Source: a virus. From it: a stretch of 64,000 nt of DNA. Position numbers and translations under genes: made by a program. Below the pieces are notes generated by a model. That model saw nothing but the letters and a program-made list of their open reading frames with translations, had not been told where the DNA came from and searched no databases. Shown here piece after piece: positions 3,443 to 57,869 of the stretch (position 1 is its first letter; each line of letters opens with the position of its first letter). The stretch spans positions 43,023 to 107,022 of IMG/VR virus record IMGVR_UViG_3300044638_008494, one strand, 5' to 3'.

Positions 3443-3460
3443 TTATTTTATTTAATATTA

Positions 3461-5263: not shown

Positions 5264-5267
5264 ATTT

Positions 5268-6803
5268 TTATTCAGTATATACGTAAGTAAAACTTACTTT
5301 CCTACCATCAAGATCCTCATTTATAGTTTTTGCTGTTAAAATCGAAAGCTTATATTCATTTACAATTTGTTGTATAAAATTCAAAGTATCAATATACTTT
5401 CCACTTTCAAATGAGGCATTTCCCTGTATTTGTATTGTTTGTGGCTGCTCATGAGTTCCATAAGCGCTCCATTCAGAACAAAGTGGCTGTTTAAATTCAT
5501 ATTGCTGCAAAGAGTATGATTTTGTTATCCCATATGTTAAAGATTTTATATAGCACGGTATTACTGTATTTATCTTATTAATACTCCAATTACATTTATA
5601 AATTATTTTAGATGCAGACTCGCTATATGTAACGTTTTCCTGTGCAAGTTTAAAATATGATAAATTATAATCATTATTATTAAATTCATCTATGTTTTTT
5701 ATAAATTCATTTAGTGGGTTAAATTTAGTATTAAAATAATCAACAACGCGAGTGTATCTTTCGGATTGATTTCCAACTCTGCATGTTATTTCCGAGACCA
5801 TTTCTGCCGAATCTTGGTCGGCCTGTATATCGTATCCAAGATTAAAAGATGCCGTAGATTTGACAGCTATTATTGGACTATTATCATTATTGAATACTGC
5901 GTTGAATTCAATAGTGTTACTTTGCAAGTTCTCATTAACACCAGAAGTTAAATAAAATGAATTAAGATCTCCATTATTTGTACATCCACTATAAACATCA
6001 AAAGCCAAACTCCACAAATCTAAAGTTTTATATTGATTTCTTACATTTTGTATGTTATTTCCCAACCCGCCTTCGATACTTCCGTTAATACTAACCGTAG
6101 TAAAATTATCAAGATCTTTATTAATTGTATTGCTATATCTTATAATTCCAGTAACAATATTTGCTTGATCAAATATATAATCTTCTTTTATTGAATATGT
6201 TCCATTCAAACGATCTGAAAATTCTGAAATTGAAACAAGTGTTGGCAAATTATTATCATGAATATTAATAAAAGCAGGTTTAATAAAATTATTTAATCCA
6301 GTCCTTGAGTATACCCAGTTCCTTGCGTTATAAATTGCTGCGTTTTTATTAGTCACACCATTTGCCGAGACTGAGTGGCTTATATTTACGCTTCTATTAT
6401 TATTTTCTTCTACAACAAATTCATCTACAGGATTGGTTACAAAATGTTTTCCGCTAAACGATAATGGATCAAAAACTTCCACATTAACAGTAAATGGCAA
6501 AATATACGCATAGTTTGATTCATCAAAAGATATATCTCTAATAATAACATTATCGGCATTATAGATAATATTATTATCTTCTTTAATTTGAAAATTTTTG
6601 AAATTTTGCGCGAAATTACTTACCAACTGCTGCTGTTTTAATAACATGCCACTAAAACCCACACCACAGCCTACAATCTCCCCCTCTAAATTAAAAGTGT
6701 CAATAGATTGCCACCAACCATCACTTTCTCTATTAAAAGAGACAAATGGAGTGTAGCATATTCCACTAAATGCATTTTTATTATTATACCAAATTTCATT
6801 CAT
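5268..6803 (-). CDS. Tail protein, probable paralog of 6796-8367
   Basis: 511 aa; overlaps its neighbour; shares patterns with it (I..IS.D.SN, SH.V/L, E..D..N.T.S..E). Confidence 0.55.
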   Translation of the reverse strand: MNEIWYNNKNAFSGICYTPFVSFNRESDGWWQSIDTFNLEGEIVGCGVGFSGMLLKQQQLVSNFAQNFKNFQIKEDNNIIYNADNVIIRDISFDESNYAYILPFTVNVEVFDPLSFSGKHFVTNPVDEFVVEENNNRSVNISHSVSANGVTNKNAAIYNARNWVYSRTGLNNFIKPAFINIHDNNLPTLVSISEFSDRLNGTYSIKEDYIFDQANIVTGIIRYSNTINKDLDNFTTVSINGSIEGGLGNNIQNVRNQYKTLDLWSLAFDVYSGCTNNGDLNSFYLTSGVNENLQSNTIEFNAVFNNDNSPIIAVKSTASFNLGYDIQADQDSAEMVSEITCRVGNQSERYTRVVDYFNTKFNPLNEFIKNIDEFNNNDYNLSYFKLAQENVTYSESASKIIYKCNWSINKINTVIPCYIKSLTYGITKSYSLQQYEFKQPLCSEWSAYGTHEQPQTIQIQGNASFESGKYIDTLNFIQQIVNEYKLSILTAKTINEDLDGRKVSFTYVYTE

Positions 6804-8367
6804 CGTCTATAGAAGTTACAGAGAATTGTGCGGTTCTTTCCATTGGATTTATGGATAATGTAGCGGATGTTGTTATTTCGCCCTCGCCGCCTTCATACAT
6901 ATCTTCAGGAAAAGTATTTAAAATCGTTTCCTTATTATATTTTCTTATTTTTGTTTTTGTTATTTCCTTAAAAGATTTTTGTTGGTGAAATTGTCTAACT
7001 AATTTATTAGATATTTTATATTCATCAAACAATCTTACTGGATAATTTATTGATTTAGACGATACACTTTCAGTATATTCTCCTGATAAGTTTATGTTCC
7101 TATCAGAATATATTGCTGTATAATCAAGGTCGCCATTATACTTAGAAACTGTAAGTGATTTGTTTTTTAAATTTAAAATTGGCTTTTTAATTTTATTACA
7201 AGAAATATTTTTATCTATTAAAGCCTCATAAGCATCATATGCAGCTGGATATAGTAAATTTATTTTTTGCTCATATCCATATTTCATATTTTCATATTTT
7301 TCTTGCGAATTTAATGGCCCATGTCCTTTTATTTTTAAATTTACTTGCGATGCAGATTCATATGGATCCGCAAAATTCGTCGTTGCATCTAATATCCAAG
7401 AAAATCGTGATGATATAAACTTCTGATCAGAATATTTTGACTCTAATTGAATTCTTCCATCAAACCTATTGGCCTGATATCCTTGCGATACGGCAAATGA
7501 ATTAAGAGTTCCGCTCGTATAATTCTGATAAAATGACTGGCATCTTGAATATGATAACCCTGAAATGGATTTTAATTTATTTTTTGCTCCATCAAATCTT
7601 GGATCAGACAATCCCAGAATATCTGCAGTTTCTGTTACTTCTGATACGCCTTCTTCATTTCTTAACAAAGAATATGAATAAAATACATCAGCATCATTAT
7701 CTCCATTTATTGATTTTGAAAAACTTTCTTCAAAAGAAAAAGTTTTATTTATTAAATCATATGTTTCAGAATAATTTTTTTTAACTGAAAAAAAGTTATT
7801 ACCACCGCTTAATAAAAAAAATGGAACCTCTTTTCCTATTATTCCAGACGCTATAGATTTAGCTATATTGCTTGCCAAATTCCCAACCAAGGCATTATCG
7901 AATTCAATATTTAAATTATGACTGTATTCATAAACATTATTTCGATTCAAATTTAAATTAAAATTTTCAGAAAAATTTGTTATCAAAGACAATCTGTTAT
8001 CGTTGATAAAATTAGACATACCGGTGAAATATGCACCGGTCATATTATACAAATTACCTGTGGATCTAATAATTATATCTGCTGTATATTCTGCAGTTCT
8101 AACCCAATTAGAAGAATCTACGCTTATATTAGTTATATATCCAGAACCGAAATTATGGCCATTAATAATTATTTCACTTGTAGATTTTGATAAGTTAATC
8201 AAGTCATTCAGCCCACTAAAAACGCCACTAACACCTTGACTGTTTTGAAGGTCTAATAAGAGTCCTTGTATTTGTAAATTTTTTTCTATAGCATAATTCA
8301 ACCCATAATCTCCAAAGAATTTTGGACTATGCGTGTACGTTAGTAGAGTTGCATTATCAAAAATCAT
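6796..8367 (-). CDS. Tail protein immediately downstream of the tape measure (distal-tail position)
   Basis: 523 aa; synteny. Confidence 0.55.
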   Translation of the reverse strand: MIFDNATLLTYTHSPKFFGDYGLNYAIEKNLQIQGLLLDLQNSQGVSGVFSGLNDLINLSKSTSEIIINGHNFGSGYITNISVDSSNWVRTAEYTADIIIRSTGNLYNMTGAYFTGMSNFINDNRLSLITNFSENFNLNLNRNNVYEYSHNLNIEFDNALVGNLASNIAKSIASGIIGKEVPFFLLSGGNNFFSVKKNYSETYDLINKTFSFEESFSKSINGDNDADVFYSYSLLRNEEGVSEVTETADILGLSDPRFDGAKNKLKSISGLSYSRCQSFYQNYTSGTLNSFAVSQGYQANRFDGRIQLESKYSDQKFISSRFSWILDATTNFADPYESASQVNLKIKGHGPLNSQEKYENMKYGYEQKINLLYPAAYDAYEALIDKNISCNKIKKPILNLKNKSLTVSKYNGDLDYTAIYSDRNINLSGEYTESVSSKSINYPVRLFDEYKISNKLVRQFHQQKSFKEITKTKIRKYNKETILNTFPEDMYEGGEGEITTSATLSINPMERTAQFSVTSIDDE

Positions 8368-8369: not shown

Positions 8370-11300
8370 TTATGCAGTCTGACCATTTTTAGTTTGTAAT
8401 CCAGCAATTTGCCTATTAACAGCATCAATTGCCGATGCAAGTTCTGCTCTTAACTGCTCTTGAACTTCCGATATTTTTGCTCCAACCTCAGCAATTGCCT
8501 CTTCAGACATTGATACGTCTATTTTAAAATCAGTACTAATATCAACAGGAAAACTAATATCTTGATTTAAAGTCATTTCTTTTCCACCATCTTCTACTGG
8601 CTGCTGAGATACCTCTCTCTGTGGTGACTCTTGAACTTGCTTAGTTTGTTCTTCAACTATTCCACTATTTTTATTAACAGCCTCACGACTACCATCTAAT
8701 GACTTTTTCAATTCCCTTATTTCTTCTTTTCCTTGCTCGATATTTTTAGGAGGGGCCATCGGGGCTTGAGGCTCAACTCCGATTGGCGGTTTTGATTCTG
8801 GGTTAAAATTTGGATCATAATACCCTAATCCCCCATCTGGCTGTGGAAACATTTTCGGAGGAGGAAGCGTTGGTTTAGGAAATTGAGGAAAAGCTGGGCT
8901 TAACAAAGGAGACTGAGGTGTATATGGTCGAGTTAGTGGCCCACCAATTGGCTGCAATGGAGATTGGATTTGTGGATCCGCAAATTGACCAACCAAAGGA
9001 TTAACTCCTCGATTTGTAAATGGAGACGCAGTAGGTGGAACATATGGTGAAACTGCGGGGTTATTATAAGGAAAAGGCTTTGGAGCCTGAAGCGGCATAC
9101 CCACGCTACCAGCTCCACCCTCTCCGAAATTAGGATCATAAAATCCTTGACTTCCATCAGGCTGAGTAAATGTTTGCGGCGGAGGAAGCGTTGGTTTAGG
9201 AAATTGAGGAAAATTAGGTCTTGGCGTCAATACTTCTCGCATATTTTCCGCTGACCCACCCAACATAACAGATCCTTCTAGCGCACTTACTATCTTATCT
9301 CCATTTAAATCTATAGCACCTATCATTTTTATAGCAAATGGATTAAGAGAATTTTCTAAAACAGACTTTATAATCGGCATAACGTCAGTCGCCATTGTTC
9401 CATCTATACCCTTGTTTAACATACCATCTCTGGAAGCATTTGGGGCTTGATATGGCATTTGCGACAATAATGATGTTACATCATAAGTGTTTCCAGCCTT
9501 TAACTCATCTCTTAAATACTGTATTACTGATATCATTTTATCATCTGATATTTTTTGTCCAGCCAGTAATGCGTCAATTGAAGATTTTAATTGTTGCTGA
9601 AAATCATCGACATTTTTAATTTCAGAATTTGCATTCTGGCTCTTTTGTACGGCGAGCTGATTTACGGACCGACCAGTATCGGTCGCCTCCACTTTTAATT
9701 CGTTTTTCAAATATTTAGAAAAATTTTCTTTTAAACTATCCGCAAACTCTTTTCCATACTTATTCATAGCATCAACTGCCAATTTATTATTTGGATCTGC
9801 CCTCCATTGGGTTAACTGCTCTTTTGTCATTGATTGAGACCATTGGCCCGACATTCGACCTTCTTCATTAAACATTTGATGTGTTTGATATTTATCTCCC
9901 CAACTTAACAAATCAGCACCAGGATCATCTGGTCCGTAGTTGTATTTCCTACGAACTACATTTTGATAATTTTTTTCTTCAATTTCTTTTATTATTTCTT
10001 GAAATGATTTTCCTAATGGGCCACTTGATGCTCCTGATATGTTTGTATTCGGAAGTTTATTTAAAATTTGTTTTAGTATAGAAATATTTTGAGCTACAGC
10101 TTGGTCTTGCTGCGCTTGAGATGCTTCCATTGCTTTAGCGGCCGCTGGGCTTATAATTGTAAAATTTCCGCCACTAGAGCCGCCAACGCCACTAACACCA
10201 CCAACGCCGCCAGCACTACCAGCACCACTAACACTGCCAGTAGTAGCTGCTCCCCGCATTGCTGCTTTTATTGCACTTGCGGCTGCTGTGCTTGTTATTG
10301 GGGGATTTGTTGTGGCGCTTCCTCTAGCATTAGACTGCATACTAAATGCACCGCCAGAAGTTGATGGGCATAATGCATTAATAGCTGTTTGCGCACAATT
10401 TGCCAAATTTAGTAATTTTTCCGCAGCATTATCTGCTTCTTTTTGTAATCCAGTAAAGGCTTGTTGTGAAAATTTATCCATATTTATTCCCACATATCCA
10501 ATAGATTTAACCAGATCTTCAGCTGCTTGATTGAATGGGTTAGCAAATTTTTGCCCAGGCTTCATACCGCCAAACTGCTGATTAACCATATCAACCACAT
10601 TTGCTCGACCCAATCCCTTTAAATTACCCAAACCAATAGCATCAAGGTATTCATCGGATTGATCTTGCAACATTGCTGTTAATCTTGATCTTTCTCCTCT
10701 TTGGTAATTTTCTGGAATTCCAAGAGCTTCCATAGCTTCTAATCTTCTGATTGACTGTTCGCGCTCGAACTTGTCCATTTCTCTTTTATATTTTAATGGC
10801 CCAATTTCGCCAGCTTGGTATGCCCTACGAAGCTCAGTTCCCTCCATTTGTGTTGGGTCAAATCCTGATAATCCAGAAACCCCACCAGCATATCCTTGCA
10901 TTTTTTGCATGCGATCATTAAATCTACCAACTGCAATATCGAATGCCTGTTGAACTTTTTGTGCAGCATTGTTAAAATCTATATTTTGTAGCGCCTGTTT
11001 TAAATTAAAATTTGCATCTTCAAGGCTTTTCTCATATGCGTCCTGCAGCCCTTTAGGCAATTTTGATAAATCAATTTTTTGTATATCTTCTATAGTTACA
11101 GCTTTTGCAATTTGTTCGGATACATTTTGCAAATCTACAACCTCTCCACGGTTAGCAGATGTTGTTAAATCTGCATTTTTTATATTATCTTGCAATTGCG
11201 GAACAAATGATCCCTTTAATGTATCAGCCGCTTCTTTACTTGCTTCTATAAAATCAATATAACTTTGCTGATCAATTCTTGCTGCGCCAATTGCCGCTTC

Positions 11301-14300
11301 TTGTTCAAAAGATGGGGTTCTGTACTGCATAATCGCAGTATCAGTTTGCGTGGCTAAGCCTAAATTAAATTTAGGTATATCTATTTTTAAAATTTTATTT
11401 AAGCTTCCTATTAATTTTGCAGAATTATCAAGCGCGTTTTTATTTTTTCTAAAATTATTAATATAATCTTGAACTACTTGTGGCAATTGTGAAATATTTT
11501 TTCTACTCTGTTCTTCAAGTCGAAGAGTATTTTGATTTTCTTCTAAACGCTTTTTCAAATTTTTAGATAAATCTTCTGATAATCCTCTTAATTCTGCAGG
11601 TGATGCTTTTTTAAATGCTTCTTTTAATTTTTCAAGTTCTTCTGCGGTGCCTTCCCCGCCTTCTTTCAACATGCTTAAAATATTATCAAATTCTTCTCCA
11701 ATACGGACCGCGTCAAATCCTTTTAATTTTTCCACCGAAGGAATTACCTTGTTTAACATGTCTATGCGGCCCTTAGTATCAACATCTTCTCCACCGGCAT
11801 AATCAAATGTAGATAAAATAGAATCAGCAATTTTTTTAGATTGATCTTTTCCTATATTGGTCCATGATGTTATAAATTCTTTACCAATATCTGTAGTTAA
11901 CGATTCAATATTTGCACCTCTTGTTTGATCTTGTATATATTTAGCTAAAATTTCTTGCTGTTTTGCAACATCATTTGTCGCAGATATTTGGTTTTGTATG
12001 CTTGGTGGCAACTTTGATAATTGTCGCAAGTATTCATTTTCTGCTCTTGTTATATCTTTAATTGGGGCATTGGATTCAGTTAAATCACTTAATTTTTCTC
12101 TAGCTATTAGTAATCCTTGCGTAGACTCTTGTGCTCTTTGTGCATTTTCTGTTGCTTTTTGAACTCTTTGAGATGCATCGCCCAATCCATTTATAGATAA
12201 TGCTAGCGCATCTACAATTGGCTTTGCTGATAATGCAGCTCCAACTATTCCTCCTATTATTGCGCCTGGTGCTCCACCGCCAACTGCCGCGCCAGCCCCT
12301 GCAAAACCACCAATATTGCCTAATCCAGTCAAAAGTGACCCCGCAACTGTTTGATCTCCACCAGCTATCTGAGATCCTATTCCGCTTGCTGTTTGAAGGG
12401 CGAATCCCAACCCCAAACCTTTATTTTTTGCAAACTCATCAAACCTTTCTCTTTTAGTCAAGCTTCGTTTATTTATAGCAGATTGAATTGTTGCTGCTCT
12501 TTCTTCAGATTTGGCCTGATCTCTCGCTACACGCTCTCTTCTTTTTTCCCTTTCTATTTGACCAGCCATTCCAGTATCTGTCCATGTCCCTGCTTGGGCA
12601 TTATATAATGTAGGATTTTGTCTGGCTGTATTTTCCTGAATATCTAATTTTTGCAAAAGCTTGTTTTGCCTATTTATTCTTTGCTGGTTAGATTCAAATG
12701 CTTGATCTAATGTTTGTCCGGTGGATTTTAGTTCTCCTTTTAATTTTCTTAATTCTTTTGCTCCATCATCCAGCTGTCCTCCAAAAAATGCTAGAGAAAA
12801 TAGCAATCCAGAAATTGATGCTGAAATTGCTGTAAAATCTGTTGCTCCAGAGGTGAAATTTGTTGCTCCAGAGGTGAAATTTGTTTCATTATCTCCTGCG
12901 GCAAAATTTGGAATGAATCCAGAAGAGGCCAATAATCCAGCACCTTTCTGCATCTCTGCAGAATCCTTCATGGCGCGATTTTTTCCACCATGTTGGCGCA
13001 TAGCTGAGGCAAACGAAGGCTGACTTTTATTTCTTACGTGCAAGAATGGCTTATCATCTATTACGGCTTTTTTTCCAGAAATAGATTCTTCTAAAGCAAT
13101 AACTTCTTTGACATACTGATCTGATTTTGCAAAATTTGGTATAAAACCAGAAGCTGCCATATCAGAAGTTTTGCGTATATTTTGATTATAATTTCTTAAT
13201 TCTTTTATGGCCATTGGGCTACTAGCCAGCGACTGCAAATCCTTATCTGATAAGCCCAACTCTTTTGCTCCTTGAACAAGTGGCTTGTATTTTAAATCTC
13301 CGATCTTAATTGCGTCCAGATTAAATCCAGCATTAGATTTAGATCCGTACAGCAGTTCTTTAAATTTATTTAACTTGTCTGGCGTTCCAAGTTTTAACAA
13401 CGATCCTTGCTGTATTCTTGCCAAGGCAGATTGTGCCGCAGATCTTTCTCCAAGGGTAGCGCCGCGCTTCATCAATTCTTGAATTGCTTGTATATTTACA
13501 AAATTTGGTATAAAACCAGAAGCAAATTTACCAACATTCGGCTGACTTTCAGATGCAATCCTCTTAGCCATATGTCCAAATACTATTGGGTCAATAAGCC
13601 CTACTTTATTTGTTTTTATTAAACCTTCTGGAGAAATTCCACCTTCGCGCGCCTGTATTTGCGCTTCTTTTGGAAGTGGGCGCATAAATGTAAAATTCGC
13701 TGATGAGGCAGTATCTAAAGCTAATGCTTGCAACCAATTTGGCTTTTCGCTTACAGACCTTTTTGCACTCTCAAATCTTGAATTGACAATAGCAATTAAA
13801 GATTTTTCTACCTCATAATCGTTAATTTCATCTTTAAATGTATTACCAGCAAATCTTTGCGATGTTACCAATGAGTTACCAGAGACTCTTCTTAAAGGCA
13901 ATAATTGTAAATTTGAATCAGTTTTTTTTAGTTGCCTTGTAGCTTTTGCCCAATCTATTGAACCAATATCTCTTAATTTACCTCTTTGTTGCATTGGGGA
14001 CTTGTAATCTAAAGTCGGTAATTTTAGAACTTTACTTCCGGTTTTAAACGCATGAGATTCTGCCCCACTGCCTAGATATTGTAAATCAGGATATTGTTGA
14101 TATAATTTATTTATACGCTTTTCAACTGCTGGTTTTTGTTTAATCTCCTCAAAATTAAACGAACTCTTATTTCGTATTTGCTCTAAAATTGGGCTATCTG
14201 CAAAATTTGGTATAAACCCACTTGCCATAGCAAACATCCCTTGCTGGTTTGGATATTTTTTTGCAAATATTGCTCCTAATTTTGCTACAATATCAGGATC

Positions 14301-17300
14301 TCTTAAAGCTTCTTGTGGCAATCTATTCTTTTTGACAAAGTCTTTAATCCATTGTGCTTGAAATTTATTTCTTCCAGCCATCATTGGATTTGCTGCAAAT
14401 GCTGGAATAAAACCATCGGCAGCGCCAGAAGATTGTAACGCTGCCATTCTTTTCTCTACTTCTATTTCAAACTGTGATCGCGCTCCTCCCCTTCTAAGAA
14501 CTAGCCCTTCTTTTCTAATACTTTCAATAGCTTTTATTCTAAGAGCCTGAACTTTTCCAAAACCAGGCCCACTTTTTACTTGTTTAACTGCACCAGGTTT
14601 TGCTTCGTTGAGTAATTTTTGCATTACTTCATTAGTTGCACCCGATGAGCTTTTTGCATCATACATTCCAGGCGCACCATGAAATAATTTTCTTAATCTT
14701 GGCGTTATTCTTTCTTGTCTAAAATCAATACCAGCATTTTGAGAAGTTTTTTGTAAGCCTTGCTGAAGTAAAGTAATTAATCCACCCTCGAAGGCAACGC
14801 CAACGGCACCCTCTGCTGCTCCATAGTTAGGAAGATCTTTTGGTGATTTTAAAAAGTTTTCACCTCCTAAAACTTGTCCGAATTGATTCGCCTCACGAAC
14901 AAGTAGGTCGCCTAAATTTTTTTTCAAATCAGGGAGCTGGCCTTTAATAACATCTTTATTAATTCCAGCAACCGGTATTAGCCCTTTGTATTTTTTGCCA
15001 AGATACGAACCAGCGCCCGGTGCCATTGTGTAACCTTCAGAAATATTAGGATAAATAAGAGATACAACCTTGCCATTTAATGCTTTAGATGTTCTCGTAT
15101 CACCAAGATCAATAATTTCATCGCCTTCCTTTGATGATTTGGCAAAATTTGGTATAAAACCAGAAGCTGCATTTGGAACAACCAATTTATAATTGCTTGG
15201 CATAAAAATATTATCCTTTTGTGGAGGATTTTGTTTTTTGCTTTTTCCGTAATTAGTTTCAATAACTTTAGAAATTAAATTATCGTTGTCTATTGTTCCA
15301 AATTTCACCTCGCCCACTGGTTTTCCTTTTGAATTTAATAGGTCCATTCTTGCAGTTTTTGATTCTGCAACTTGCAAACCAAGACGATTCGCAGCAAATC
15401 TCTCGAAATATTTACCAACAAGATCATTTTTTACCCCAGTGAATTGTCTGTCCTTATTAACTAATTTTGTATTGCCAGATAATAAGCTAGGAACCTTTTC
15501 TTTATTTGTGAGCAAATTTTGTTTTAACTGGCCAATTTGTTTTATAGAATACCCATTTCTTGTAAAATATTTAACAGCAGTCTCTGATAGCTTTGAATCT
15601 TTGGAATTTAAATTATTTAATTGTTTATCAAATTGATTTTCAAATGAAGATCTACTACCAATCGAAATAATATCAAATGAAAATGGAGAATATGTATCTA
15701 AACCCTTATTTGCTACTTGAGATGATTGTACTCCAGTTATAGTACCACCTGGCAAAGATTTTTTATTTTTTGGTTGTGCGAAATTTGGCACAAACCCAGA
15801 TGCAGATATTTTTTTAGCTCCATCAGGTAGACCATATTTGCTTTTCATTTCCCTATTCCATACAGCAGTTCCATCACCACCACCATAATTAGGAACAGCC
15901 CATTCTCCAGTATGAGCCACCATTGTCCCCTTTTTATTATTTCCCATTGGGAAATTTTTCATTACAACTGGTCTATCTTTTGCTGGATTTGCGTCACCAA
16001 CTCTATTATTAATATTATTTTGCTCTGCTGCTAGATGCGGCAAAAAGCCACCAGCCGCAGTTTTAACCTTAGAACCTCTTTGTGTTATAAAAGATTTTCC
16101 ACCCACGTTTTGCACACCAACTTGAGACGCTGTTGTTTTTGCTATCTGTGCTGCTATAGAATTTTGCTTTTGCAACTCTATGGTTTGCTGCTTTACAATT
16201 TCTAAATATGCTTTTGCCCCAGAAGCAACAGAGGCTTGGCCGCTAGATATTGCCTTGTATATACTAGCATTATTTTGTAAAAATTTTACAACACTTTGCT
16301 GTATTACTGCTTGTTCTTTAGCTGCTTGATTTACCCCTAAAATACTTTTAAAAGCTTCAACACCATATCTAGAAAATTCTGCAAATAGTTTAACTACCGC
16401 TGCCGTTACCAAAGCAAGCCCTGGTCCGCCAATAAAATTTCCAATTCCGCTTATTATTCCGCTACCAATTTTTGCACCAATACTATCAGCATCAACATTG
16501 TTCACGGCACCAGTGAGAAATTCAGAAATATTTAAAACATTTTTTGCAGCTGGCTCAAAAAGTCCACCAGCAATATTTCCTCCAGCTTGCTGTATATTTG
16601 CCAAGGCACGCGTACCTCTAGCAGAAAGTGTTTCATTTAATTTTTCATTACGCCTTATGGCCTGATCAGTAGTTCCAAGTGATGTTTTTAAAGCTTGGTC
16701 ATATATTGAATATTCCTTACCAAGATCTCCCAGCGCAGCTTTTAATACGTTAATTTGGAATACACCGCCAACCTGCTCAGCTACATAGTTTTTTTGCGTT
16801 GCAGATAATCCATCGTAAACACTAGCAAGTTCTTTCAATAATTGTACTTGCGTTTTTACATTACCCTCGGCATCTGTAGATTGTATGCCTAGCCCACCCA
16901 AAACTTCTTGTGTTTTTTCTCTACCAAGTCTTGTAAATATAGTTTTTAATGAGTTACCTATAACAGCACCGCCTCGAGCCGTAACTTGTTGCGCGGTGGT
17001 TACTAAAGCGATCAACTCATCAAAAGAAATTCCAGCATCATCAGCGGAAGATCCAACGCGGCTAAGTGCGTTTGCTAAATCCGCAGAACTAACAGCAAAA
17101 GCAGCATCAACGTTAGCTAGTTTATTTACAATTTCAGTTGCTTGTAGCGCAGATCCCCCAAACGAGTTGATTGCGGCTGTTAATGCAGATACGCTAGCGG
17201 CGGCATCCAATCCACTTAAACGTGTTAAGATCAAAGCCGCTTCTGTTCGCTTTAATGTTTCTTCTACCCCAAGACCTTGACGAGAAAGTTCCGTAGCAGC

Positions 17301-17696
17301 TTCGGCAACCACATCAAACGATTGCGCTGTGTTCCCAGCGATATCGAATAATGAAGCTCCAAATTTCGCTAAATTTCTATCTGTCAAATTTAACAGAACA
17401 TTAACATCTGCTAATTTTTTTTCTACATTTACAAATGTATTAAATAAAGAAGTAACAGCGCTTTGTATCGCAAAGATTGCACCAGCAGATGCAGCAAAGG
17501 CAATAACGCGCGCGTTCGCTGCGGCCAAAGACTTGTCGATTTCTTGTATTTGACCGCTAATTTTGCCCAATGGCTGTGCTGCGCCACCTGCTGTTTGAAT
17601 ATTTAGAGTAACACCTTGCTTGGCAACCTGATCAATTTGCCGCCTAAGTTTCGCGGTATTACCATCAACATCTACTCTGATATTTGGATTAGCCAT
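8370..17696 (-). CDS. Tail tape measure protein with internal motif-delimited cargo domains
   Basis: 3108 aa; TP901-type N-terminus (AATELSRQGLGVEETLKRTEAALILTRLSG...IVNKLANVDAAFAVSS); Ala/Gly-rich hydrophobic segments; follows tail tube and chaperones. Confidence 0.93.
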   Translation of the reverse strand: MANPNIRVDVDGNTAKLRRQIDQVAKQGVTLNIQTAGGAAQPLGKISGQIQEIDKSLAAANARVIAFAASAGAIFAIQSAVTSLFNTFVNVEKKLADVNVLLNLTDRNLAKFGASLFDIAGNTAQSFDVVAEAATELSRQGLGVEETLKRTEAALILTRLSGLDAAASVSALTAAINSFGGSALQATEIVNKLANVDAAFAVSSADLANALSRVGSSADDAGISFDELIALVTTAQQVTARGGAVIGNSLKTIFTRLGREKTQEVLGGLGIQSTDAEGNVKTQVQLLKELASVYDGLSATQKNYVAEQVGGVFQINVLKAALGDLGKEYSIYDQALKTSLGTTDQAIRRNEKLNETLSARGTRALANIQQAGGNIAGGLFEPAAKNVLNISEFLTGAVNNVDADSIGAKIGSGIISGIGNFIGGPGLALVTAAVVKLFAEFSRYGVEAFKSILGVNQAAKEQAVIQQSVVKFLQNNASIYKAISSGQASVASGAKAYLEIVKQQTIELQKQNSIAAQIAKTTASQVGVQNVGGKSFITQRGSKVKTAAGGFLPHLAAEQNNINNRVGDANPAKDRPVVMKNFPMGNNKKGTMVAHTGEWAVPNYGGGDGTAVWNREMKSKYGLPDGAKKISASGFVPNFAQPKNKKSLPGGTITGVQSSQVANKGLDTYSPFSFDIISIGSRSSFENQFDKQLNNLNSKDSKLSETAVKYFTRNGYSIKQIGQLKQNLLTNKEKVPSLLSGNTKLVNKDRQFTGVKNDLVGKYFERFAANRLGLQVAESKTARMDLLNSKGKPVGEVKFGTIDNDNLISKVIETNYGKSKKQNPPQKDNIFMPSNYKLVVPNAASGFIPNFAKSSKEGDEIIDLGDTRTSKALNGKVVSLIYPNISEGYTMAPGAGSYLGKKYKGLIPVAGINKDVIKGQLPDLKKNLGDLLVREANQFGQVLGGENFLKSPKDLPNYGAAEGAVGVAFEGGLITLLQQGLQKTSQNAGIDFRQERITPRLRKLFHGAPGMYDAKSSSGATNEVMQKLLNEAKPGAVKQVKSGPGFGKVQALRIKAIESIRKEGLVLRRGGARSQFEIEVEKRMAALQSSGAADGFIPAFAANPMMAGRNKFQAQWIKDFVKKNRLPQEALRDPDIVAKLGAIFAKKYPNQQGMFAMASGFIPNFADSPILEQIRNKSSFNFEEIKQKPAVEKRINKLYQQYPDLQYLGSGAESHAFKTGSKVLKLPTLDYKSPMQQRGKLRDIGSIDWAKATRQLKKTDSNLQLLPLRRVSGNSLVTSQRFAGNTFKDEINDYEVEKSLIAIVNSRFESAKRSVSEKPNWLQALALDTASSANFTFMRPLPKEAQIQAREGGISPEGLIKTNKVGLIDPIVFGHMAKRIASESQPNVGKFASGFIPNFVNIQAIQELMKRGATLGERSAAQSALARIQQGSLLKLGTPDKLNKFKELLYGSKSNAGFNLDAIKIGDLKYKPLVQGAKELGLSDKDLQSLASSPMAIKELRNYNQNIRKTSDMAASGFIPNFAKSDQYVKEVIALEESISGKKAVIDDKPFLHVRNKSQPSFASAMRQHGGKNRAMKDSAEMQKGAGLLASSGFIPNFAAGDNETNFTSGATNFTSGATDFTAISASISGLLFSLAFFGGQLDDGAKELRKLKGELKSTGQTLDQAFESNQQRINRQNKLLQKLDIQENTARQNPTLYNAQAGTWTDTGMAGQIEREKRRERVARDQAKSEERAATIQSAINKRSLTKRERFDEFAKNKGLGLGFALQTASGIGSQIAGGDQTVAGSLLTGLGNIGGFAGAGAAVGGGAPGAIIGGIVGAALSAKPIVDALALSINGLGDASQRVQKATENAQRAQESTQGLLIAREKLSDLTESNAPIKDITRAENEYLRQLSKLPPSIQNQISATNDVAKQQEILAKYIQDQTRGANIESLTTDIGKEFITSWTNIGKDQSKKIADSILSTFDYAGGEDVDTKGRIDMLNKVIPSVEKLKGFDAVRIGEEFDNILSMLKEGGEGTAEELEKLKEAFKKASPAELRGLSEDLSKNLKKRLEENQNTLRLEEQSRKNISQLPQVVQDYINNFRKNKNALDNSAKLIGSLNKILKIDIPKFNLGLATQTDTAIMQYRTPSFEQEAAIGAARIDQQSYIDFIEASKEAADTLKGSFVPQLQDNIKNADLTTSANRGEVVDLQNVSEQIAKAVTIEDIQKIDLSKLPKGLQDAYEKSLEDANFNLKQALQNIDFNNAAQKVQQAFDIAVGRFNDRMQKMQGYAGGVSGLSGFDPTQMEGTELRRAYQAGEIGPLKYKREMDKFEREQSIRRLEAMEALGIPENYQRGERSRLTAMLQDQSDEYLDAIGLGNLKGLGRANVVDMVNQQFGGMKPGQKFANPFNQAAEDLVKSIGYVGINMDKFSQQAFTGLQKEADNAAEKLLNLANCAQTAINALCPSTSGGAFSMQSNARGSATTNPPITSTAAASAIKAAMRGAATTGSVSGAGSAGGVGGVSGVGGSSGGNFTIISPAAAKAMEASQAQQDQAVAQNISILKQILNKLPNTNISGASSGPLGKSFQEIIKEIEEKNYQNVVRRKYNYGPDDPGADLLSWGDKYQTHQMFNEEGRMSGQWSQSMTKEQLTQWRADPNNKLAVDAMNKYGKEFADSLKENFSKYLKNELKVEATDTGRSVNQLAVQKSQNANSEIKNVDDFQQQLKSSIDALLAGQKISDDKMISVIQYLRDELKAGNTYDVTSLLSQMPYQAPNASRDGMLNKGIDGTMATDVMPIIKSVLENSLNPFAIKMIGAIDLNGDKIVSALEGSVMLGGSAENMREVLTPRPNFPQFPKPTLPPPQTFTQPDGSQGFYDPNFGEGGAGSVGMPLQAPKPFPYNNPAVSPYVPPTASPFTNRGVNPLVGQFADPQIQSPLQPIGGPLTRPYTPQSPLLSPAFPQFPKPTLPPPKMFPQPDGGLGYYDPNFNPESKPPIGVEPQAPMAPPKNIEQGKEEIRELKKSLDGSREAVNKNSGIVEEQTKQVQESPQREVSQQPVEDGGKEMTLNQDISFPVDISTDFKIDVSMSEEAIAEVGAKISEVQEQLRAELASAIDAVNRQIAGLQTKNGQTA
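8860..9213 (-). repeat. Duplicated Pro-rich block in the tape measure C-terminus (FPQFPKPTLPP)
   Basis: Identical 33-nt copies at 8860-8892 and 9181-9213, each followed by QPDG..G.YDPNF. Confidence 0.9.
12840..12881 (-). repeat. 21-nt in-frame tandem duplication (TNFTSGA x2)
   Basis: tgttgctccagaggtgaaatt at 12840-12860 and 12861-12881. Confidence 0.9.
12900..16058 (-). repeat. Eight dispersed (A/S)(S/D/G)GF(I/V/L)P(N/A/H)(F/L)(A/V) peptide motifs in the tape measure
   Basis: Copies at ~16031-16058, 15777-15806, 15141-15170, 14394-14423, 14199-14228, 13497-13526, 13128-13157, 12900-12929. Confidence 0.9.
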
Positions 17697-17766: not shown

Positions 17767-18753
17767 TCAGCTCTTGCTAGCCAATTCGTATATTCCCATG
17801 CTTCCCTTTGTTTGGGATTCAGAAATTATTTTATCTCCCAATATATCACCGCCAGCAATGCTTTTAACGTCATCCCTATCTCCAAATAAGAAAGTAGATC
17901 CCTTATTTCCTTTTTTATTTTTACTGGTAGATTCTACTCGTTTCCTATTCTTTAAAGATTCAAGCCATTGATCTAATTTATCGGGGTTATCGTAAACCCC
18001 ATCTGGAATTTCAGCGTCAGAGTTTTTAATTATATTTTGATAATATTTCCCCCAAATTAAAACTTCATGCTGATTTTTTGTTAGTTTTATTACTGGCTTT
18101 CCAAACACTTCCATAGATGTGCTCCCTATATACAAGATATTTTGAAAATGATGAGATATGGCTGTTTTTTTTATTATTTTAGAAGAGAAATCGGATAAAT
18201 ATTTAAAATAGTAATATGTTGCCCAATCTAAGATATTTTCAGACTCTTCATCTAGATTTTTATTAAATAATAACTCTTTTAAATCTTCATTTTTAAATAA
18301 AAAATTTTGCAAGAAAAAATCAGAAGTTTTTTTTGTGGCCCACTCCTCTGATGTCATTACGATAAAGGATGATCTTTCTTTATTTAACTTATCTAATTTT
18401 TCATGCTCAGAATTAACTTGCTCGTCAATACGCTTTTTATCAGAATCATAGATTAGTTTTGATCTTGTTGTATTTAATCTATTAATTGTTGATTTTAATA
18501 TTCGAATTTGATTCTCTTTTTCTTCACTCCACCACCCATATTTGGATGCAAGCGCCACCTGATCTTCTTCTCCAAGTATTCCATTAACGCTGGCTTCATT
18601 TAAAAATCTATCATAAATATCTCTTATCTGAAGAGACTCTGATTGGGTTAAATGCTTTAAGTATATTTTTCCGTAATTTTCTATTTGGTATACGGAATAG
18701 CCATTAGATATATCTTCAAAAACGGCCAATACATCAACACTTTGGCCACTCAT
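17767..18753 (-). CDS. Putative tail assembly chaperone
   Basis: 328 aa, charged/helical, directly upstream of the tape measure. Confidence 0.55.
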   Translation of the reverse strand: MSGQSVDVLAVFEDISNGYSVYQIENYGKIYLKHLTQSESLQIRDIYDRFLNEASVNGILGEEDQVALASKYGWWSEEKENQIRILKSTINRLNTTRSKLIYDSDKKRIDEQVNSEHEKLDKLNKERSSFIVMTSEEWATKKTSDFFLQNFLFKNEDLKELLFNKNLDEESENILDWATYYYFKYLSDFSSKIIKKTAISHHFQNILYIGSTSMEVFGKPVIKLTKNQHEVLIWGKYYQNIIKNSDAEIPDGVYDNPDKLDQWLESLKNRKRVESTSKNKKGNKGSTFLFGDRDDVKSIAGGDILGDKIISESQTKGSMGIYELASKS

Positions 18754-18762
18754 AATGTTAGT

Positions 18763-19539
18763 TTATTCCTCGCTTGGCTTTGTGTCTTCTATTTTATTTT
18801 CTTTATTTTCTTCAGTATCAGCGGCAGTACTGTCATCTGCTGATCGATTTGACCCAGAATCGCTATCTTTAAAATCTTGCCAATTCGAGATTCTGTTTAA
18901 AAACCAAAGCGTAATTAAATAATTAAATCTTTGACCAACCTTTATAATAAAGGCTTCATCTTCATTGTCTGGATCAAGCTGATCATACCAGTCCAGCATT
19001 TCATCGTAATTTTCACCATTAAAAAACTGCTCGTCTTCGCTTTTATAAGCTAATTGTGTTAACCACCATTGGATGGTTGCATTTCTTGCCTTAGCCTCTG
19101 CCGTATTTTCAAAAATGTAAATTTGCTCAAGCTCAAATGTTTGAATCTCCCTTTTTGATTCTTCAATTTGCAATTCAAGTTTTGCTTTTTGAAGTTTTTG
19201 TTTATTATCTAATTCGGGCAATTGGTTTAATTTGTTCAACTCGATACTTGATTCAAAAAATGTTCTTTTGGCTTTAGTATAATCCTCTGCTTCAGAGTTT
19301 GAAATTGTTCCTCCTAAGTTTTCTAAAATAGTATTCCAAGCGGCTTTTGGCAATAGGCCAGCCTTAACAAAGCTCGCTAACTGTTTTGCGTATTCAACTT
19401 CGCCAAGTTGCCGCAAGCTTCTTGATGGTTTTAAAATATAAAATCTTTTCTCTTCATTCTTATTGTTTTTAGCAATGAATGAGTAAATCCATTTTTTAGT
19501 ATCAAAGTCCGGTTTATCCTGCACATCATTATTATTCAT
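18763..19539 (-). CDS. Putative tail assembly chaperone
   Basis: 258 aa, coiled-coil, between tail tube and tape measure. Confidence 0.55.
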   Translation of the reverse strand: MNNNDVQDKPDFDTKKWIYSFIAKNNKNEEKRFYILKPSRSLRQLGEVEYAKQLASFVKAGLLPKAAWNTILENLGGTISNSEAEDYTKAKRTFFESSIELNKLNQLPELDNKQKLQKAKLELQIEESKREIQTFELEQIYIFENTAEAKARNATIQWWLTQLAYKSEDEQFFNGENYDEMLDWYDQLDPDNEDEAFIIKVGQRFNYLITLWFLNRISNWQDFKDSDSGSNRSADDSTAADTEENKENKIEDTKPSEE

Positions 19540-19544
19540 ATTTA

Positions 19545-19784
19545 TTACTTTCTATTATTATCATCATTAATAAACAAAAAATCAAAATTTTCTAATTCTT
19601 TTGTTATATCTCTTATTGTATTATTTCCGTGATCAAGAATTCTCTTTCTAATTTTTTGAAATTCTTCATCTGACATGCGGCCATCAGCTACAATATCTTC
19701 TAATACATAGATAAAAGACAAAAAAAGCCTAGTCACAGACTTTTTAATATATCCGAGTACAAATTCTTTTATATTAAATTTCAC
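19545..19784 (-). CDS. Hypothetical protein (GTG start)
   Basis: 79-aa ORF filling the gap after a TGTAAT motif. Confidence 0.6.
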   Translation of the reverse strand: MKFNIKEFVLGYIKKSVTRLFLSFIYVLEDIVADGRMSDEEFQKIRKRILDHGNNTIRDITKELENFDFLFINDDNNRK

Positions 19785-19811
19785 CTTTAAAAACCTTTTA
19801 CCTTACATGGT

Positions 19812-19817
19812 ATTACA
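19812..19817 (-). promoter_or_regulatory. Putative late promoter motif TGTAAT
   Basis: Immediately downstream of the tail-tube terminator, upstream of 19784. Confidence 0.55.
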
Positions 19818-19826
19818 CCATAAAAT

Positions 19827-19858
19827 AAAAAAAGGGGCAGAAACTGCCCCTTTTTTTT
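19827..19858 (-). terminator. Intrinsic terminator after the tail tube gene (bidirectional)
   Basis: A7-GGGGCAG-aaa-CTGCCCC-T8. Confidence 0.85.
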
Positions 19859-19877
19859 GAATTTATTTTGTTTATAA

Positions 19878-20987
19878 TTATACCAAAGCAGCTGCTGGAA
19901 AACTTCCAGACAAGAAGATACCACGTTGATTATCTTCTGGGCCACCAATTGGAACTTCAAAACTTGCAGTTAGCGTAGCATTGTCTCCGATTGATGTTGA
20001 CAAGCTTTGACTTACAAGCTTAGCACCTTTAAGTGTTGCGCTCATTGCCAAATCTCCTGCACCAGAGCAGTCGATCTTCTTAAGCTTTAAGGTTAAATCG
20101 TATACTCCAGTATCGCAAAGAAGGCTAGAAATATTTCCATCTGAAAGATTTCCAACTTCAGCATCTATATCTAGCGTAGCTGTAACTGGAAAGTCAATTT
20201 CTCTAGCAAATGAGAAGCGGCTTCCCAATTTGTTCAATGGCGTTCTTGCTAAATCAAAACTCATGGTTGCTGATTGAACTTTCAAGTCAGAAGCTGAGTA
20301 CCCAATGATTCCAGTAATATCGATAGTAGCATCGCCTGGAAGAAGTGCTGTTGGTTGTGCGCCATAAGCGTTTGTTTTGTGCTGAGGCAATCTGAATGCC
20401 TGTGACGTAATTGGCAATCCATTTACTGGATTAACAGCAGGAACATCGTTATTACCATCAACTGATGAGTAAATTCTAGCATTAAGTGCTTCCAAATCAA
20501 CTGTAGCTGTTGGAATATCGCCCACTGCAACATTCAAGCTATATGAAGTAACATAACTATTTCCAACACCAACAACTCCGGTTACCCCTGCATAGTTTGA
20601 TGCGTCACTACCTTCAGATGCGACTAAAAGATATAGATTTTTTTCGTCGGTTGTCTTTTGAAGAATATCTTTTAAGCATGAAACTTGTGCTTGGGTTCCT
20701 GTAGCAACAGTTAGTCCTAGCAATTTTTCATTTAAACCATCTGTTACATAGTAAGATAAGCTTGCTGAAACTGTTGGGGCTTCTGTGTCAAGACGATCAA
20801 TTGCTGCAAGATTTCCAAATTGGTTAATATCTTGTAGATTTCTTGTGAAATCTGAATCAAATGATTGAACACGGGTAAGCTGTTTGATATCAGCTGATCC
20901 GGTTTGCGCCACTCTAGCACCGTTTGTTCCAGTAGTTTGGCTTGCGAATACTCCTAGTGATTGATATATAATGCGATTTCTGCTCAT
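19878..20987 (-). CDS. Major tail tube protein
   Basis: 369 aa; MSRNRIIYQS...RVQS...INQFG pattern; own promoter motif and terminator; follows head-tail genes. Confidence 0.75.
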   Translation of the reverse strand: MSRNRIIYQSLGVFASQTTGTNGARVAQTGSADIKQLTRVQSFDSDFTRNLQDINQFGNLAAIDRLDTEAPTVSASLSYYVTDGLNEKLLGLTVATGTQAQVSCLKDILQKTTDEKNLYLLVASEGSDASNYAGVTGVVGVGNSYVTSYSLNVAVGDIPTATVDLEALNARIYSSVDGNNDVPAVNPVNGLPITSQAFRLPQHKTNAYGAQPTALLPGDATIDITGIIGYSASDLKVQSATMSFDLARTPLNKLGSRFSFAREIDFPVTATLDIDAEVGNLSDGNISSLLCDTGVYDLTLKLKKIDCSGAGDLAMSATLKGAKLVSQSLSTSIGDNATLTASFEVPIGGPEDNQRGIFLSGSFPAAALV

Positions 20988-21028
20988 AATTTTATATTTT
21001 ATTTAAATAAAGTGTTATTCTTATACTA

Positions 21029-21034
21029 ATTACA
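21029..21034 (-). promoter_or_regulatory. Putative late promoter motif TGTAAT (tail tube)
   Basis: TGTAATTAGT upstream of 20987. Confidence 0.55.
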
Positions 21035-21062
21035 TTTAAAAAGCCCAAAAAGCCAATTTTTT

Positions 21063-21935
21063 TTAATTTATTCGCGGCTCTCTAACGTAACTTAAAGTAA
21101 AATCTGCAAATGCCCCATAAGAGTTATTTCCTACTAGTTTATTAACTGAAGGGGCAAATTTAGATATCGTTACGGAAGAGACTAGTGCCATTAAACTTCC
21201 TGTTTGGGAATATTGATGGCATAAATTTAAATAATTATAATTCTGATTTTTATAATCCCCATATATATTAAATGGCATATCTTTAGGGTGCAAAACAGGA
21301 AAATATTTCCTAGCCATATCTGTTGCGATTGAAACGCCAGCATCTAGTAAGTATGGTGAATCTGCCAAAAATATAGTTCTTATATTAACTACGCTTTCAT
21401 CTAATCCACCGAACGCGAAAGGTTGATTTTCTGTATATTGTGTTTTAACAAAAATAGCCGGATATGTTAACTGGTCATAACTTAATGGCGTTTTAGCATC
21501 ACTTCCAAAAGAGTCATTTGGTCTTACCGGATATTTAGATTCAAATATTAGAGTATCATCTTGAGATTCAGTATAGTATACATTATATTCTTTATAGGCA
21601 TATGAGCATTTTACACTCGATAATGATGTTGATAATGTGTTGTTAAAAATCGCTCTTCCCAATTCATAATCAATGTAAAGACCACCTGTTGTTTTTGGAT
21701 TAAAGGTATTGTTTATGTAAACGCCAGATGGTATATTTGCTCCATTTATTGAATAATCAGAAACAAATTGTCTGTACGGACTGGCATAAATTGTTTTATT
21801 AGAAAAATTTGGATCTTGCGTGTTATATAAATTTCCACTATTGACGTTTATATATGCAGACCCTTTTCTTAAAATTTCATGGTCAATGAAATGTGTAAAG
21901 CTCGGCGCAATTCTATTTAAAAATTGAGGTACCAT
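21063..21935 (-). CDS. Putative tail terminator/completion protein
   Basis: 290 aa; YPAIFV...PFAFGG motif; just upstream of the tail tube. Confidence 0.5.
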   Translation of the reverse strand: MVPQFLNRIAPSFTHFIDHEILRKGSAYINVNSGNLYNTQDPNFSNKTIYASPYRQFVSDYSINGANIPSGVYINNTFNPKTTGGLYIDYELGRAIFNNTLSTSLSSVKCSYAYKEYNVYYTESQDDTLIFESKYPVRPNDSFGSDAKTPLSYDQLTYPAIFVKTQYTENQPFAFGGLDESVVNIRTIFLADSPYLLDAGVSIATDMARKYFPVLHPKDMPFNIYGDYKNQNYNYLNLCHQYSQTGSLMALVSSVTISKFAPSVNKLVGNNSYGAFADFTLSYVREPRIN

Positions 21936-21936
21936 A

Positions 21937-22521
21937 TTATTTCAAATCTATTAAAAATTTTTTCCACATTGATGACCAGTACTGCTTTCTTTGATATTGT
22001 CCAGATCTTACCTTATTATCAGCTTGAATACCGCCGCCAGATCTTCCCAATTTTTTAGAAATATAAAAGGAAAATCCAGATATTCCTTGCTCAATTGATT
22101 TTATCCATGACCTGCCAAGCTCCCAAGGCATTTGGGCATTAGCTGTAAGATCTGCATCTGAAACTCCGTTGACATCAAATTCAAATAATATTTTATCTCC
22201 ACTTTCTGATGTTTTGGGATTTTTATTTTTAATTTGTATTTTATTTTTTAAAAAAGCTATCCACAAATCTACTGGATTATTTCCAGCATCAAATCCTATA
22301 AAAGAAAAAAGATTTCCATAACCACCTAAAGTTCCAGATATATTTGTCGAGCTTGGACCAGCTTTAATCTCTCTCGATACTGAGTGCGATCCAAAATCAT
22401 TAATTAGTTCATTTTTAGCTTTTTCTAATTTTGATTGAGCGATTTCAAATGCCTGTTTTTTAATTTGCTTATTACTTAGAACAGCAATATTCAAATCATT
22501 TTGATTAACTCCTTTAGCCAT
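21937..22521 (-). CDS. Putative neck/tail completion protein
   Basis: 194 aa, basic; head-tail cluster synteny. Confidence 0.45.
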   Translation of the reverse strand: MAKGVNQNDLNIAVLSNKQIKKQAFEIAQSKLEKAKNELINDFGSHSVSREIKAGPSSTNISGTLGGYGNLFSFIGFDAGNNPVDLWIAFLKNKIQIKNKNPKTSESGDKILFEFDVNGVSDADLTANAQMPWELGRSWIKSIEQGISGFSFYISKKLGRSGGGIQADNKVRSGQYQRKQYWSSMWKKFLIDLK

Positions 22522-22967: not shown

Positions 22968-22969
22968 AA

Positions 22970-41421: not shown

Positions 41422-41451
41422 AGATATAATTTTATTATAACTAATCGCTTA

Positions 41452-46282: not shown

Positions 46283-46283
46283 T

Positions 46284-47126: not shown

Positions 47127-47127
47127 T
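47122..47127 (+). promoter_or_regulatory. Putative late promoter motif TGTAAT
   Basis: TGTAATATAAATAT-ATG, overlapping the upstream stop. Confidence 0.5.
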
Positions 47128-47135
47128 ATAAATAT

Positions 47136-50258: not shown

Positions 50259-50267
50259 AAAATAGCA

Positions 50268-54741: not shown

Positions 54742-54805
54742 ATAATAAAAATAATATTTTAATTCCAATTGGATGTGTATATAATAGAGAAAGTAATATA
54801 AAATT

Positions 54806-56050: not shown

Positions 56051-56060
56051 TAGATAAACC

Positions 56061-57069: not shown

Positions 57070-57075
57070 GTAGAC

Positions 57076-57366: not shown

Positions 57367-57372
57367 AAAATC

Positions 57373-57603: not shown

Positions 57604-57607
57604 CACT

Positions 57608-57863: not shown

Positions 57864-57869
57864 ATATAC

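Follow-up and report, generated by a model that had tools for sequence, protein, structure and literature searches.

RESULTS

A tape measure protein with a motif-fenced array

The DNA analyzed here, called the window below, is a stretch of 64,000 nucleotides (nt) from a virus, positions 43,023 to 107,022 of IMG/VR record IMGVR_UViG_3300044638_008494, a 107-kb contig estimated to be 70% complete. Its longest open reading frame (ORF) translates to a tape measure protein (TMP) of 3,108 amino acids (aa), P0001, and our subject is an array of seven blocks in that protein that are separated by copies of one short peptide motif. The model PF10145 matched aa 121 to 311 with 101.6 bits, compared with a curated cutoff of 33.2 (E = 6.7e-29), and a PHROG search with the whole protein returned nine TMP families, all confined to the N-terminal ~540 aa. 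By these profile matches the protein is classified as a TP901-family tail TMP, with its TP901-type part upstream of the array, where an initial annotation made from the bare sequence had placed it. The features of the TMP and its array, in order from the N terminus, are as follows.

8370 to 17696, minus strand: TMP ORF, P0001 (PF10145 and nine PHROG TMP families)
16764 to 17336, minus strand: TP901-type PhageMin_Tail domain, aa 121 to 311 (PF10145, E = 6.7e-29)
16029 to 16055, minus strand: motif 1, AGGFLPHLA, degenerate, aa 548 to 556 (pattern match)
15804 to 16028, minus strand: B1, constant first block, 75 aa (at about aa 550 to 640 in nearly all relatives)
15777 to 15803, minus strand: motif 2, aa 632 to 640 (pattern match)
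15168 to 15776, minus strand: B2 cassette, 203 aa, PD-(D/E)xK-nuclease-like pattern (invariant residues in 13 relatives)
15141 to 15167, minus strand: motif 3, aa 844 to 852 (pattern match; identity to relative P0153 falls right behind it)
14421 to 15140, minus strand: B3 cassette, 240 aa, commonest cassette family (phmmer direct matches in 28 relatives)
14394 to 14420, minus strand: motif 4, ADGFIPAFA, aa 1093 to 1101 (left breakpoint of the B4+B5 indel)
14226 to 14393, minus strand: B4 cassette, 56 aa (family in ~20 relatives, at differing array positions)
14199 to 14225, minus strand: motif 5, aa 1158 to 1166 (pattern match)
13524 to 14198, minus strand: B5 cassette, 225 aa, predicted minimal protein-kinase-like domain (AlphaFold2 model, fold search, and invariant residues)
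13497 to 13523, minus strand: motif 6, aa 1392 to 1400 (right breakpoint of the B4+B5 indel)
13155 to 13496, minus strand: B6 cassette, 114 aa (family in ~17 relatives, on either side of the B3 family)
13128 to 13154, minus strand: motif 7, aa 1515 to 1523 (pattern match)
12927 to 13127, minus strand: B7, constant last block, 67 aa (42 direct matches in relatives, always array-final)
12900 to 12926, minus strand: motif 8, aa 1591 to 1599 (pattern match)
12777 to 12839, minus strand: first hydrophobic, membrane-type segment past the array, aa 1620 to 1640 (hydrophobicity)
12192 to 12287, minus strand: second hydrophobic segment, Gly/Ala-rich, aa 1804 to 1835 (hydrophobicity)

The motif copies, of the general form A-[AS]-x-G-F-[ILV]-P-N-F-A, span aa 548 to 1599 and were located by scanning the TMP with the pattern [AS][AGSD]GF[ILV]P[NHA][FL][AV]. 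The composition of the protein predicts 2e-5 chance matches, and 5,000 shuffles produced none. No copy was found outside the TMP gene in the whole 107-kb record, and a full-text literature search for the string GFIPNF returned no paper. The scan recovered all eight peptides that the initial annotation had given, and the three near-identical DNA copies it had reported are real: the 29-nt stretches at 13126 to 13154, 13495 to 13523, and 15139 to 15167 are 97 to 100% identical. Far downstream, the Pro-rich C-terminal region of the TMP (window 8697 to 9299, aa ~2800 to 3000) holds two copies of a ~40-aa repeat with the pattern ..FPQFPKPTLPPP..QPDG..G[FY]YDPNF.., in which YDPNF resembles the PNF core of the motif that fences the array.

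The annotation had described the intervening blocks as mostly Lys rich and the array as bounded by a hydrophobic segment, and both descriptions hold. All seven blocks contain 10 to 13% Lys and have isoelectric points (pI) of 9.6 to 10.2, compared with a pI of 5.3 for the C-terminal 1,509 aa, and the first hydrophobic segment begins ~20 residues past the last motif. A tandem 21-nt direct repeat (window 12832 to 12873, 90% identical), which encodes NFTSGAT twice, sits between motif 8 and this segment.

Relatives share the plan and exchange cassettes at the motif

A HMMER search of 1.84 billion representative proteins with aa 547 to 1599 of the TMP found 372 at E ≤ 1e-3, nearly all of them 2,000 to 3,500 aa long. 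In a word-indexed search, almost all relatives had PF10145, and the name given to them by JGI is TP901-family tape measure protein. The arrays of 151 relatives were cut at the motifs and the pieces clustered (blastp, 1e-5, 60% coverage), which sorted 526 blocks, fenced by 700 motif copies, into 118 clusters. The family consensus is A-[AS]-x-G-[FY]-[IV]-P-N-F-A, with N in 92% of copies; its G and P do not vary because the search pattern fixes them. The core, G-[FY]-[IV]-P-N-F, occurs 1 to 12 times per relative and 2 to 12 times in nearly all full-length ones, and the first copy is degenerate in most relatives, as it is here.

The plan, which recurs in more than 300 TMPs from metagenomes, consists of a fixed B1-type start, a fixed B7-type end, and 1 to ~10 phage-specific cassettes in between. 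Even where relatives draw on the same families, the order differs: B4-B3-B6 in P0156, B6-B3-B4 in P0020, and B3-B4-(B5)-B6 in this TMP. The positive charge is family-wide, as 98% of 110 cluster representatives have a pI above 8 (median, 9.8), and each of the 99 arrays examined has a net positive charge, +4.4 per 100 aa compared with +0.1 in the C-terminal remainder; nearly all of the acidic blocks in the family are bookends. The proximity of a hydrophobic stretch recurs as well: across 209 relatives, the median distance from the last motif to the next hydrophobic window was 111 aa, compared with 679 aa from random positions.

The bookends have features of their own. B1 contains internal echoes of the motif core (PNF and VPNY), two of them in tandem, and its alignment (A8, 29 sequences) has a mean column identity of 68%. 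Predicted as a complex of three copies, B1 with its two motifs scored 0.00, which speaks neither for nor against any reading. Some relatives (L007, L088, P0003, P0004, and P0016) carry a second, smaller array near the C terminus with its own B1-like and B7-like ends; it lies at aa 2530 to 2852 of the L007 TMP and at aa 2120 to 3100 of the L088 TMP.

Two close comparisons locate the breakpoints of cassette turnover. Homology to the TMP of L006, which is 76% identical, extends over the first 1,103 aa and is picked up again at aa 1392, making the 290-aa unit B4-motif 5-B5 an indel with both ends within motifs. Relative P0153 is nearly identical over the N-terminal part (99%), B1 (97%), B2 (94%), B6 (96%), B7 (99%), and the following 800 aa (90%), while it is without B4 and B5 and its B3 is just 74% identical. 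In a windowed alignment, 18 to 20 identities per 20 residues are maintained through motif 3 and drop straight afterwards. The deletion junction in P0153, mapped like its other junctions at the protein level, reads ..SAAG|GFIPNFVNIQ.. and falls within the motif, with 20 of 20 residues identical right behind it. The same pattern holds across all pairs of full-length relatives, in which 39.6% of the 68,868 high-scoring segment pair ends inside arrays lay no more than 5 aa from a motif center, versus 4.8% at random, with a median distance to the motif of 8 aa versus 52 aa. Judged from these alignments, cassettes are acquired, lost, substituted, and rearranged among relatives, and the breakpoints of these changes lie in the motif peptide.

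The initial annotation had suggested that the motif stays fixed while block content varies, which the 118 clusters among 151 relatives bear out, and that the motif serves as a recombination joint. The second claim stands in part. Breakpoints do lie at the motifs, as the segment pair ends, the B4+B5 indel, and the B3 allele swap in P0153 attest, but the motif does not behave primarily as a DNA-level site. In 177 strict motif copies taken from the loci, the synonymous positions resemble the remainder of the same genes, and copies that encode the same peptide are 87.3% identical in DNA within one gene and 83.1% between genes. Synonymous sites that vary like the gene at large argue that selection maintains the motif peptide and not its DNA. 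Were the motif a recombination site in DNA only, serving a recombinase or homologous exchange, with a peptide of no role in itself, the 97 to 100% identity of the three 29-nt copies and the location of breakpoints in the repeat would be accounted for; the codon usage just described and the near invariance of the amino acids across 700 copies would not, and we regard this explanation as largely refuted and highly improbable. Recombination at the motif looks like a by-product of the selected peptide: because every boundary encodes the one peptide, a short DNA similarity (21 to 29 nt) permits in-frame cassette exchange.

Cassette B5 is predicted to be a minimal kinase-like domain

B5 has 11 or 12 relatives, every one of them inside a TMP. 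An AlphaFold2 model from an 11-row alignment reached a predicted local distance difference test score (pLDDT) of 91.5 and a predicted template modeling score (pTM) of 0.85. Foldseek returned 21 PDB matches at E ≤ 1e-3, kinase-like throughout among the matches listed, including PRPK/Bud32 (E = 6.7e-5; TM score, 0.44), APH(2''), the Shigella effector OspG, RIO, and CDC7, and PknB and NleH fell just above E = 1e-3. With VIA run over 48,161 chains, the top 50 were all kinase-like (Z scores of 5.5 to 7.1, 131 to 175 residues aligned); run on the chains ranked by Foldseek, it gave Z scores of up to 7.9. Across these alignments, root mean square deviations were 3.8 to 5.5 Å.

Seven residues are invariant in the 11 sequences: G45, E47, F51, K59, D162, N168, and D203. 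The model places the Gly-rich loop, G43-S-G45-x-E47, between strands 1 and 2 and the beta3 Lys, K59, in strand 3, and D162-x5-N168 (catalytic Asp with its downstream Asn) and the metal-binding D203 complete the kinase set. The catalytic residues are kept in relatives that are 30 to 36% identical (one is 76% identical). The modeled domain thus combines a two-lobed kinase fold with the kinase residue set. Sequence models of kinases did not match: Pfam gave only LepB_N at E = 0.048, and NCBIfam and PADLOC gave nothing relevant. B5 is therefore classed as kinase-like by fold and residues and is placed in no named family. ESM features point toward a Phage_T7_kinase cluster at 0.93, a lead only; 17% of the members of that cluster carry the family. 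Within the sensitivity of the tool, no free-standing homolog of B5 or B3 of similar length was found in a collection of 5.8 billion clusters.

The other cassettes

Across 13 relatives with identities to B2 as low as 21%, the residues E125, D145, and E156-x-K158 do not vary, which is the PD-(D/E)xK nuclease pattern. Its ESM features are nearest to the Tox-REase-9/7/3 clusters of restriction-endonuclease-fold toxins (0.86 to 0.89, under the 0.9 mark), Pfam gave only DUF6998 (E = 0.007, below cutoff), and a B2 profile had no match among PDB sequences. The assignment of B2 as a PD-(D/E)xK nuclease is a lead only.

B3 yielded an AlphaFold2 model with a pLDDT of 82.2 and a pTM of 0.73 (29 rows). Its invariant residues are K24, E118, D139, Y160, K163, and K175, with E118, D139, and x-A-K163 conserved in helix-strand-strand order. 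No known fold matched in the PDB (Foldseek), in BFVD, or with VIA over the same chains as for B5, where the best Z score, 5.0, was on a helical hairpin only. Two folds guessed by eye are unsupported: PD-(D/E)xK, which neither Foldseek nor VIA lists, and ADP-ribosyltransferase, for which Diphtheria_C gave E = 0.13.

Single blocks had nothing above cutoff in Pfam, NCBIfam, or PADLOC, B4 and B6 having no family match in any of the three, and the array had no match among PDB sequences. In the relatives, Pfam recognized almost nothing among 79 cassette representatives. One relative, P0201 (3,866 aa, 11 motifs), has two GNAT-like cassettes in its array (aa 1289 to 1462 and aa 1765 to 1937) that match Acetyltransf_CG at E = 1.6e-6. 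Two of the 79 representatives (A6 members) gave weak P-loop NTPase matches (AAA_29 and AAA_30, E ~3e-3). The lysozyme, SLT, and GH19 domains of relatives, which are peptidoglycan hydrolases, were considered as cassettes and rejected; all of them lie downstream of the array.

The modeled domain ends of B3 and B5 fall within ~3 to 8 residues of the motifs, and both are predicted to be compact globular domains bounded by motifs. The blocks had been called globular-looking and unrelated in the initial annotation, which had also named Foldseek as a check. Globularity holds for the two blocks tested, B3 and B5, of which Foldseek matched no known fold to the former and a kinase-like fold to the latter; neither is an ordinary helical tape-measure repeat. 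The blocks are unrelated at the sequence level only.

These observations bear on the possibility that the cassettes are structural filler that tunes tail length, fills the lumen, or aids assembly, their variation being neutral or length-tuning. TMP length determines tail length, cassette number ranges from 1 to ~10, and most cassettes are without a recognizable enzyme family, all of which would suit such a role. It would not explain why B5 retains all of its kinase catalytic residues in divergent relatives, why B2 and B3 retain invariant charged residues, why P0201 has GNAT-like cassettes, or why the modeled cassettes are globular, unlike helical ruler segments. We consider filler improbable.

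Genomic setting and distribution

The ten ORFs that flank the TMP gene (1142 to 8367 and 17767 to 23024) matched no PHROG or Pfam family, and no tail family, at the thresholds used. Upstream of the TMP, on the same strand, 34083 to 35987 gave a weak match to a large terminase. On the plus strand, window 40204 to 53627 holds four ORFs (405, 1,236, 1,040, and 1,119 aa) without a Pfam match. In the last 10 kb (54001 to 64000), G+C content rises from a range of ~0.30 to 0.37 to one of 0.40 to 0.49, and the ORFs turn short. The phage is large, uncultured, and tailed and is apparently nontemperate.

The family is present at 80 IMG/VR loci, on contigs of up to 208 kb. A tblastn search of GenBank phage records with the array gave zero matches, a metagenome DNA scan for B3 relatives found one locus, and a viral-contig scan for the P0153 contig found none. 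In 185,579 prokaryote species genomes, the family matched just four contigs (L089, L090, L091, and L092), all in metagenome-assembled genomes labeled Nitrospinales, Thermodesulfobacteriota, Verrucomicrobiales, and Flavobacteriaceae. These labels represent four unrelated phyla, and the contigs are probably misbinned phage contigs that provide no usable host assignment. This distribution suggests that the family represents a clade of lytic phages from the environment.

DISCUSSION

A proposed model for cargo delivery by the tape measure protein

We postulate that the TMP carries an array of exchangeable cargo domains that is delivered at infection, an explanation that, taken as a whole, we think has slightly better than an even chance of being correct. 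Inside the tail lumen, three TMP copies would be packed compactly in a non-native form, as has been reported of T5 pb2. At infection, the TMP would be expelled C terminus first, and its hydrophobic segments would enter the membrane. The positively charged array would leave last, just ahead of the DNA, and would thread into the cytoplasm through a channel formed by the C-terminal half of the TMP; the inside-negative membrane potential may help the basic array to enter. The cassettes would then refold in the cytoplasm and act ahead of any phage gene expression, with B5 phosphorylating host or phage targets and B2 cutting or holding nucleic acid.

Within this model, the motif would be the recognition peptide for a single partner that is conserved across the family. 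We tentatively favor a site-specific protease that frees the cassettes as from a polyprotein. The next most likely role, a close second, is that of a docking or insulating joint that keeps the cassettes tethered at the entry pore.

Several points weigh against delivery and release. Searches of the TMP and of the ten neighboring ORFs turned up no protease domain, and the tail genes around the TMP appear to be sequence-dark, as the flanking genes carry no annotation. The two tandem motif-core echoes in B1 are unlikely cut sites and hint at a structural role. A fold has been assigned to one of the five cassettes, with Pfam recognizing almost none of the representatives from relatives. Three copies of folded domains of 200 to 240 aa do not fit a tube lumen of ~4 nm, and the model therefore requires storage in an unfolded state, which is assumed. 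That the array reaches the cytoplasm at all is something that we infer.

Some of these points would fit cargo that stays uncleaved. The motif would then act as a joint for docking, for keeping register, or for insulating folds, perhaps in the form of a short strand bound to the tube wall, to the assembly chaperone, or to the B1 and B7 bookends, and the cassettes would work while attached at the DNA entry pore. The lack of a detected protease agrees with this explanation, as do the tandem echoes in B1, which have no cassette between them. In L007 and L088, moreover, the B1-like and B7-like blocks recur jointly as a second array, which suggests that bookends and motif form one unit, and the authors of a study on phage P23-45 propose that a TMP-fused RNA polymerase acts at the pore (PMC10770324). 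On the other side, seven almost invariant contiguous residues at each boundary are typical of an enzyme-substrate or receptor-peptide pair, a feature that does not separate cutting from docking, and kinase, nuclease-like, and GNAT-like domains probably differ in their targets, which argues for release. As a full explanation we find tethering without cleavage doubtful.

Returning to release, one could picture the long tail as a device that injects effectors from a plug-in slot: a polyprotein, stored unfolded in the lumen with a 10-residue peptide at each boundary, would be read by a dedicated protease or translocation factor. It would release into the cytoplasm, ahead of the DNA, basic enzymes (kinase, nuclease-like, acetyltransferase-like, and many others of unknown fold) that are particular to each phage and quickly exchanged, to disarm or reprogram the host. 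We offer this picture as a possibility that is somewhat more speculative than the delivery model itself.

Comparison with known systems

The closest structural precedent is T5 pb2, a trimeric TMP that is metastable in the lumen and is cut after R1127, between a hydrophobic stretch and an enzyme domain, into pb2* and pb2C; once expelled at infection, the enzyme domain may have to refold (PMC10038345). T5 pb2 has one fixed muralytic domain at its C terminus and that single cut site, whereas the TMP described here has five or more exchangeable cassettes in its N-terminal half, fenced by one conserved peptide at which cutting would take place. In Thermus phage P23-45, the N-terminal part of the TMP, gp96, is an active virion RNA polymerase (PMC10770324). 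The likeness lies in a large, virion-borne enzyme module that is N-terminal to the ruler of a giant TMP and acts before phage gene expression; the difference is that the one enzyme of gp96 is fixed, and that gp96 lacks both a repeated boundary peptide and the exchange of cassettes.

Polyvalent proteins, whose processing is ascribed to a zincin-like metallopeptidase (MPTase) domain, were described by Iyer et al. in 2017 with no mention of tape measures (PMC5512222). They resemble the array in placing many unrelated effector-type domains, such as GNAT domains and nucleases, in one giant protein that accompanies DNA and varies in content among relatives, and the TMP family appears to show the same trait of many variable effector-type domains in one protein. 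They differ in being head packaged or transferred by conjugation and in lacking a conserved interdomain peptide, and no MPTase, other peptidase, or polyvalent hallmark domain was found in this TMP or in the 79 cassette representatives.

Other parallels concern single components. B5 shares its fold and its size (~220 aa) with the minimal kinases Bud32/PRPK, RIO, OspG, and NleH, but it has no membership with them at the sequence level, and it lies within a virion protein rather than being a separately expressed gene. The type III secreted effectors OspG and NleH traverse a narrow injection channel unfolded, and T7 gp0.7 is a phage kinase of early host takeover. Viral polyproteins have specific protease sites at their domain boundaries, for example, the NIa sites of potyviruses. 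The array is similar in having the same 7- to 10-residue peptide at each domain boundary, but no protease was found in the TMP or its ten neighboring ORFs.

Literature searches that combined tape measures with polyvalent proteins or antidefense returned no description of this architecture. Relative to T5 pb2, P23-45 gp96, and polyvalent proteins, the TMP differs in having many cassettes, one boundary peptide, and exchange at that peptide. The window contributes the comparison of two near-isogenic TMPs (P0001 and P0153), the statistics on breakpoints, the test of codon usage, the basic charge found across the family, and a cassette that is confidently kinase-like.

Implications

Proteins that enter with the DNA precede the reading of phage genes and are the first move against host defenses. 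Earlier cases are single fixed domains, as in T5 pb2 and P23-45 gp96, or head-packaged polyvalent proteins. In the present family, a single in-frame slot system within the tail ruler is common to hundreds of phages from the environment and comprises over 100 cassette families, of which Pfam recognizes almost none. It is probable that the tail brings an exchangeable group of enzymes into the host, delivery and cutting being the steps that we infer. The case makes it testable which state a TMP adopts in the lumen and what exits the tail with it. If the model is true, the boundary peptide would be a natural means of loading foreign proteins into a phage tail, and if the cassettes are delivered, they would constitute a large untapped set of candidate host-takeover or antidefense enzymes.

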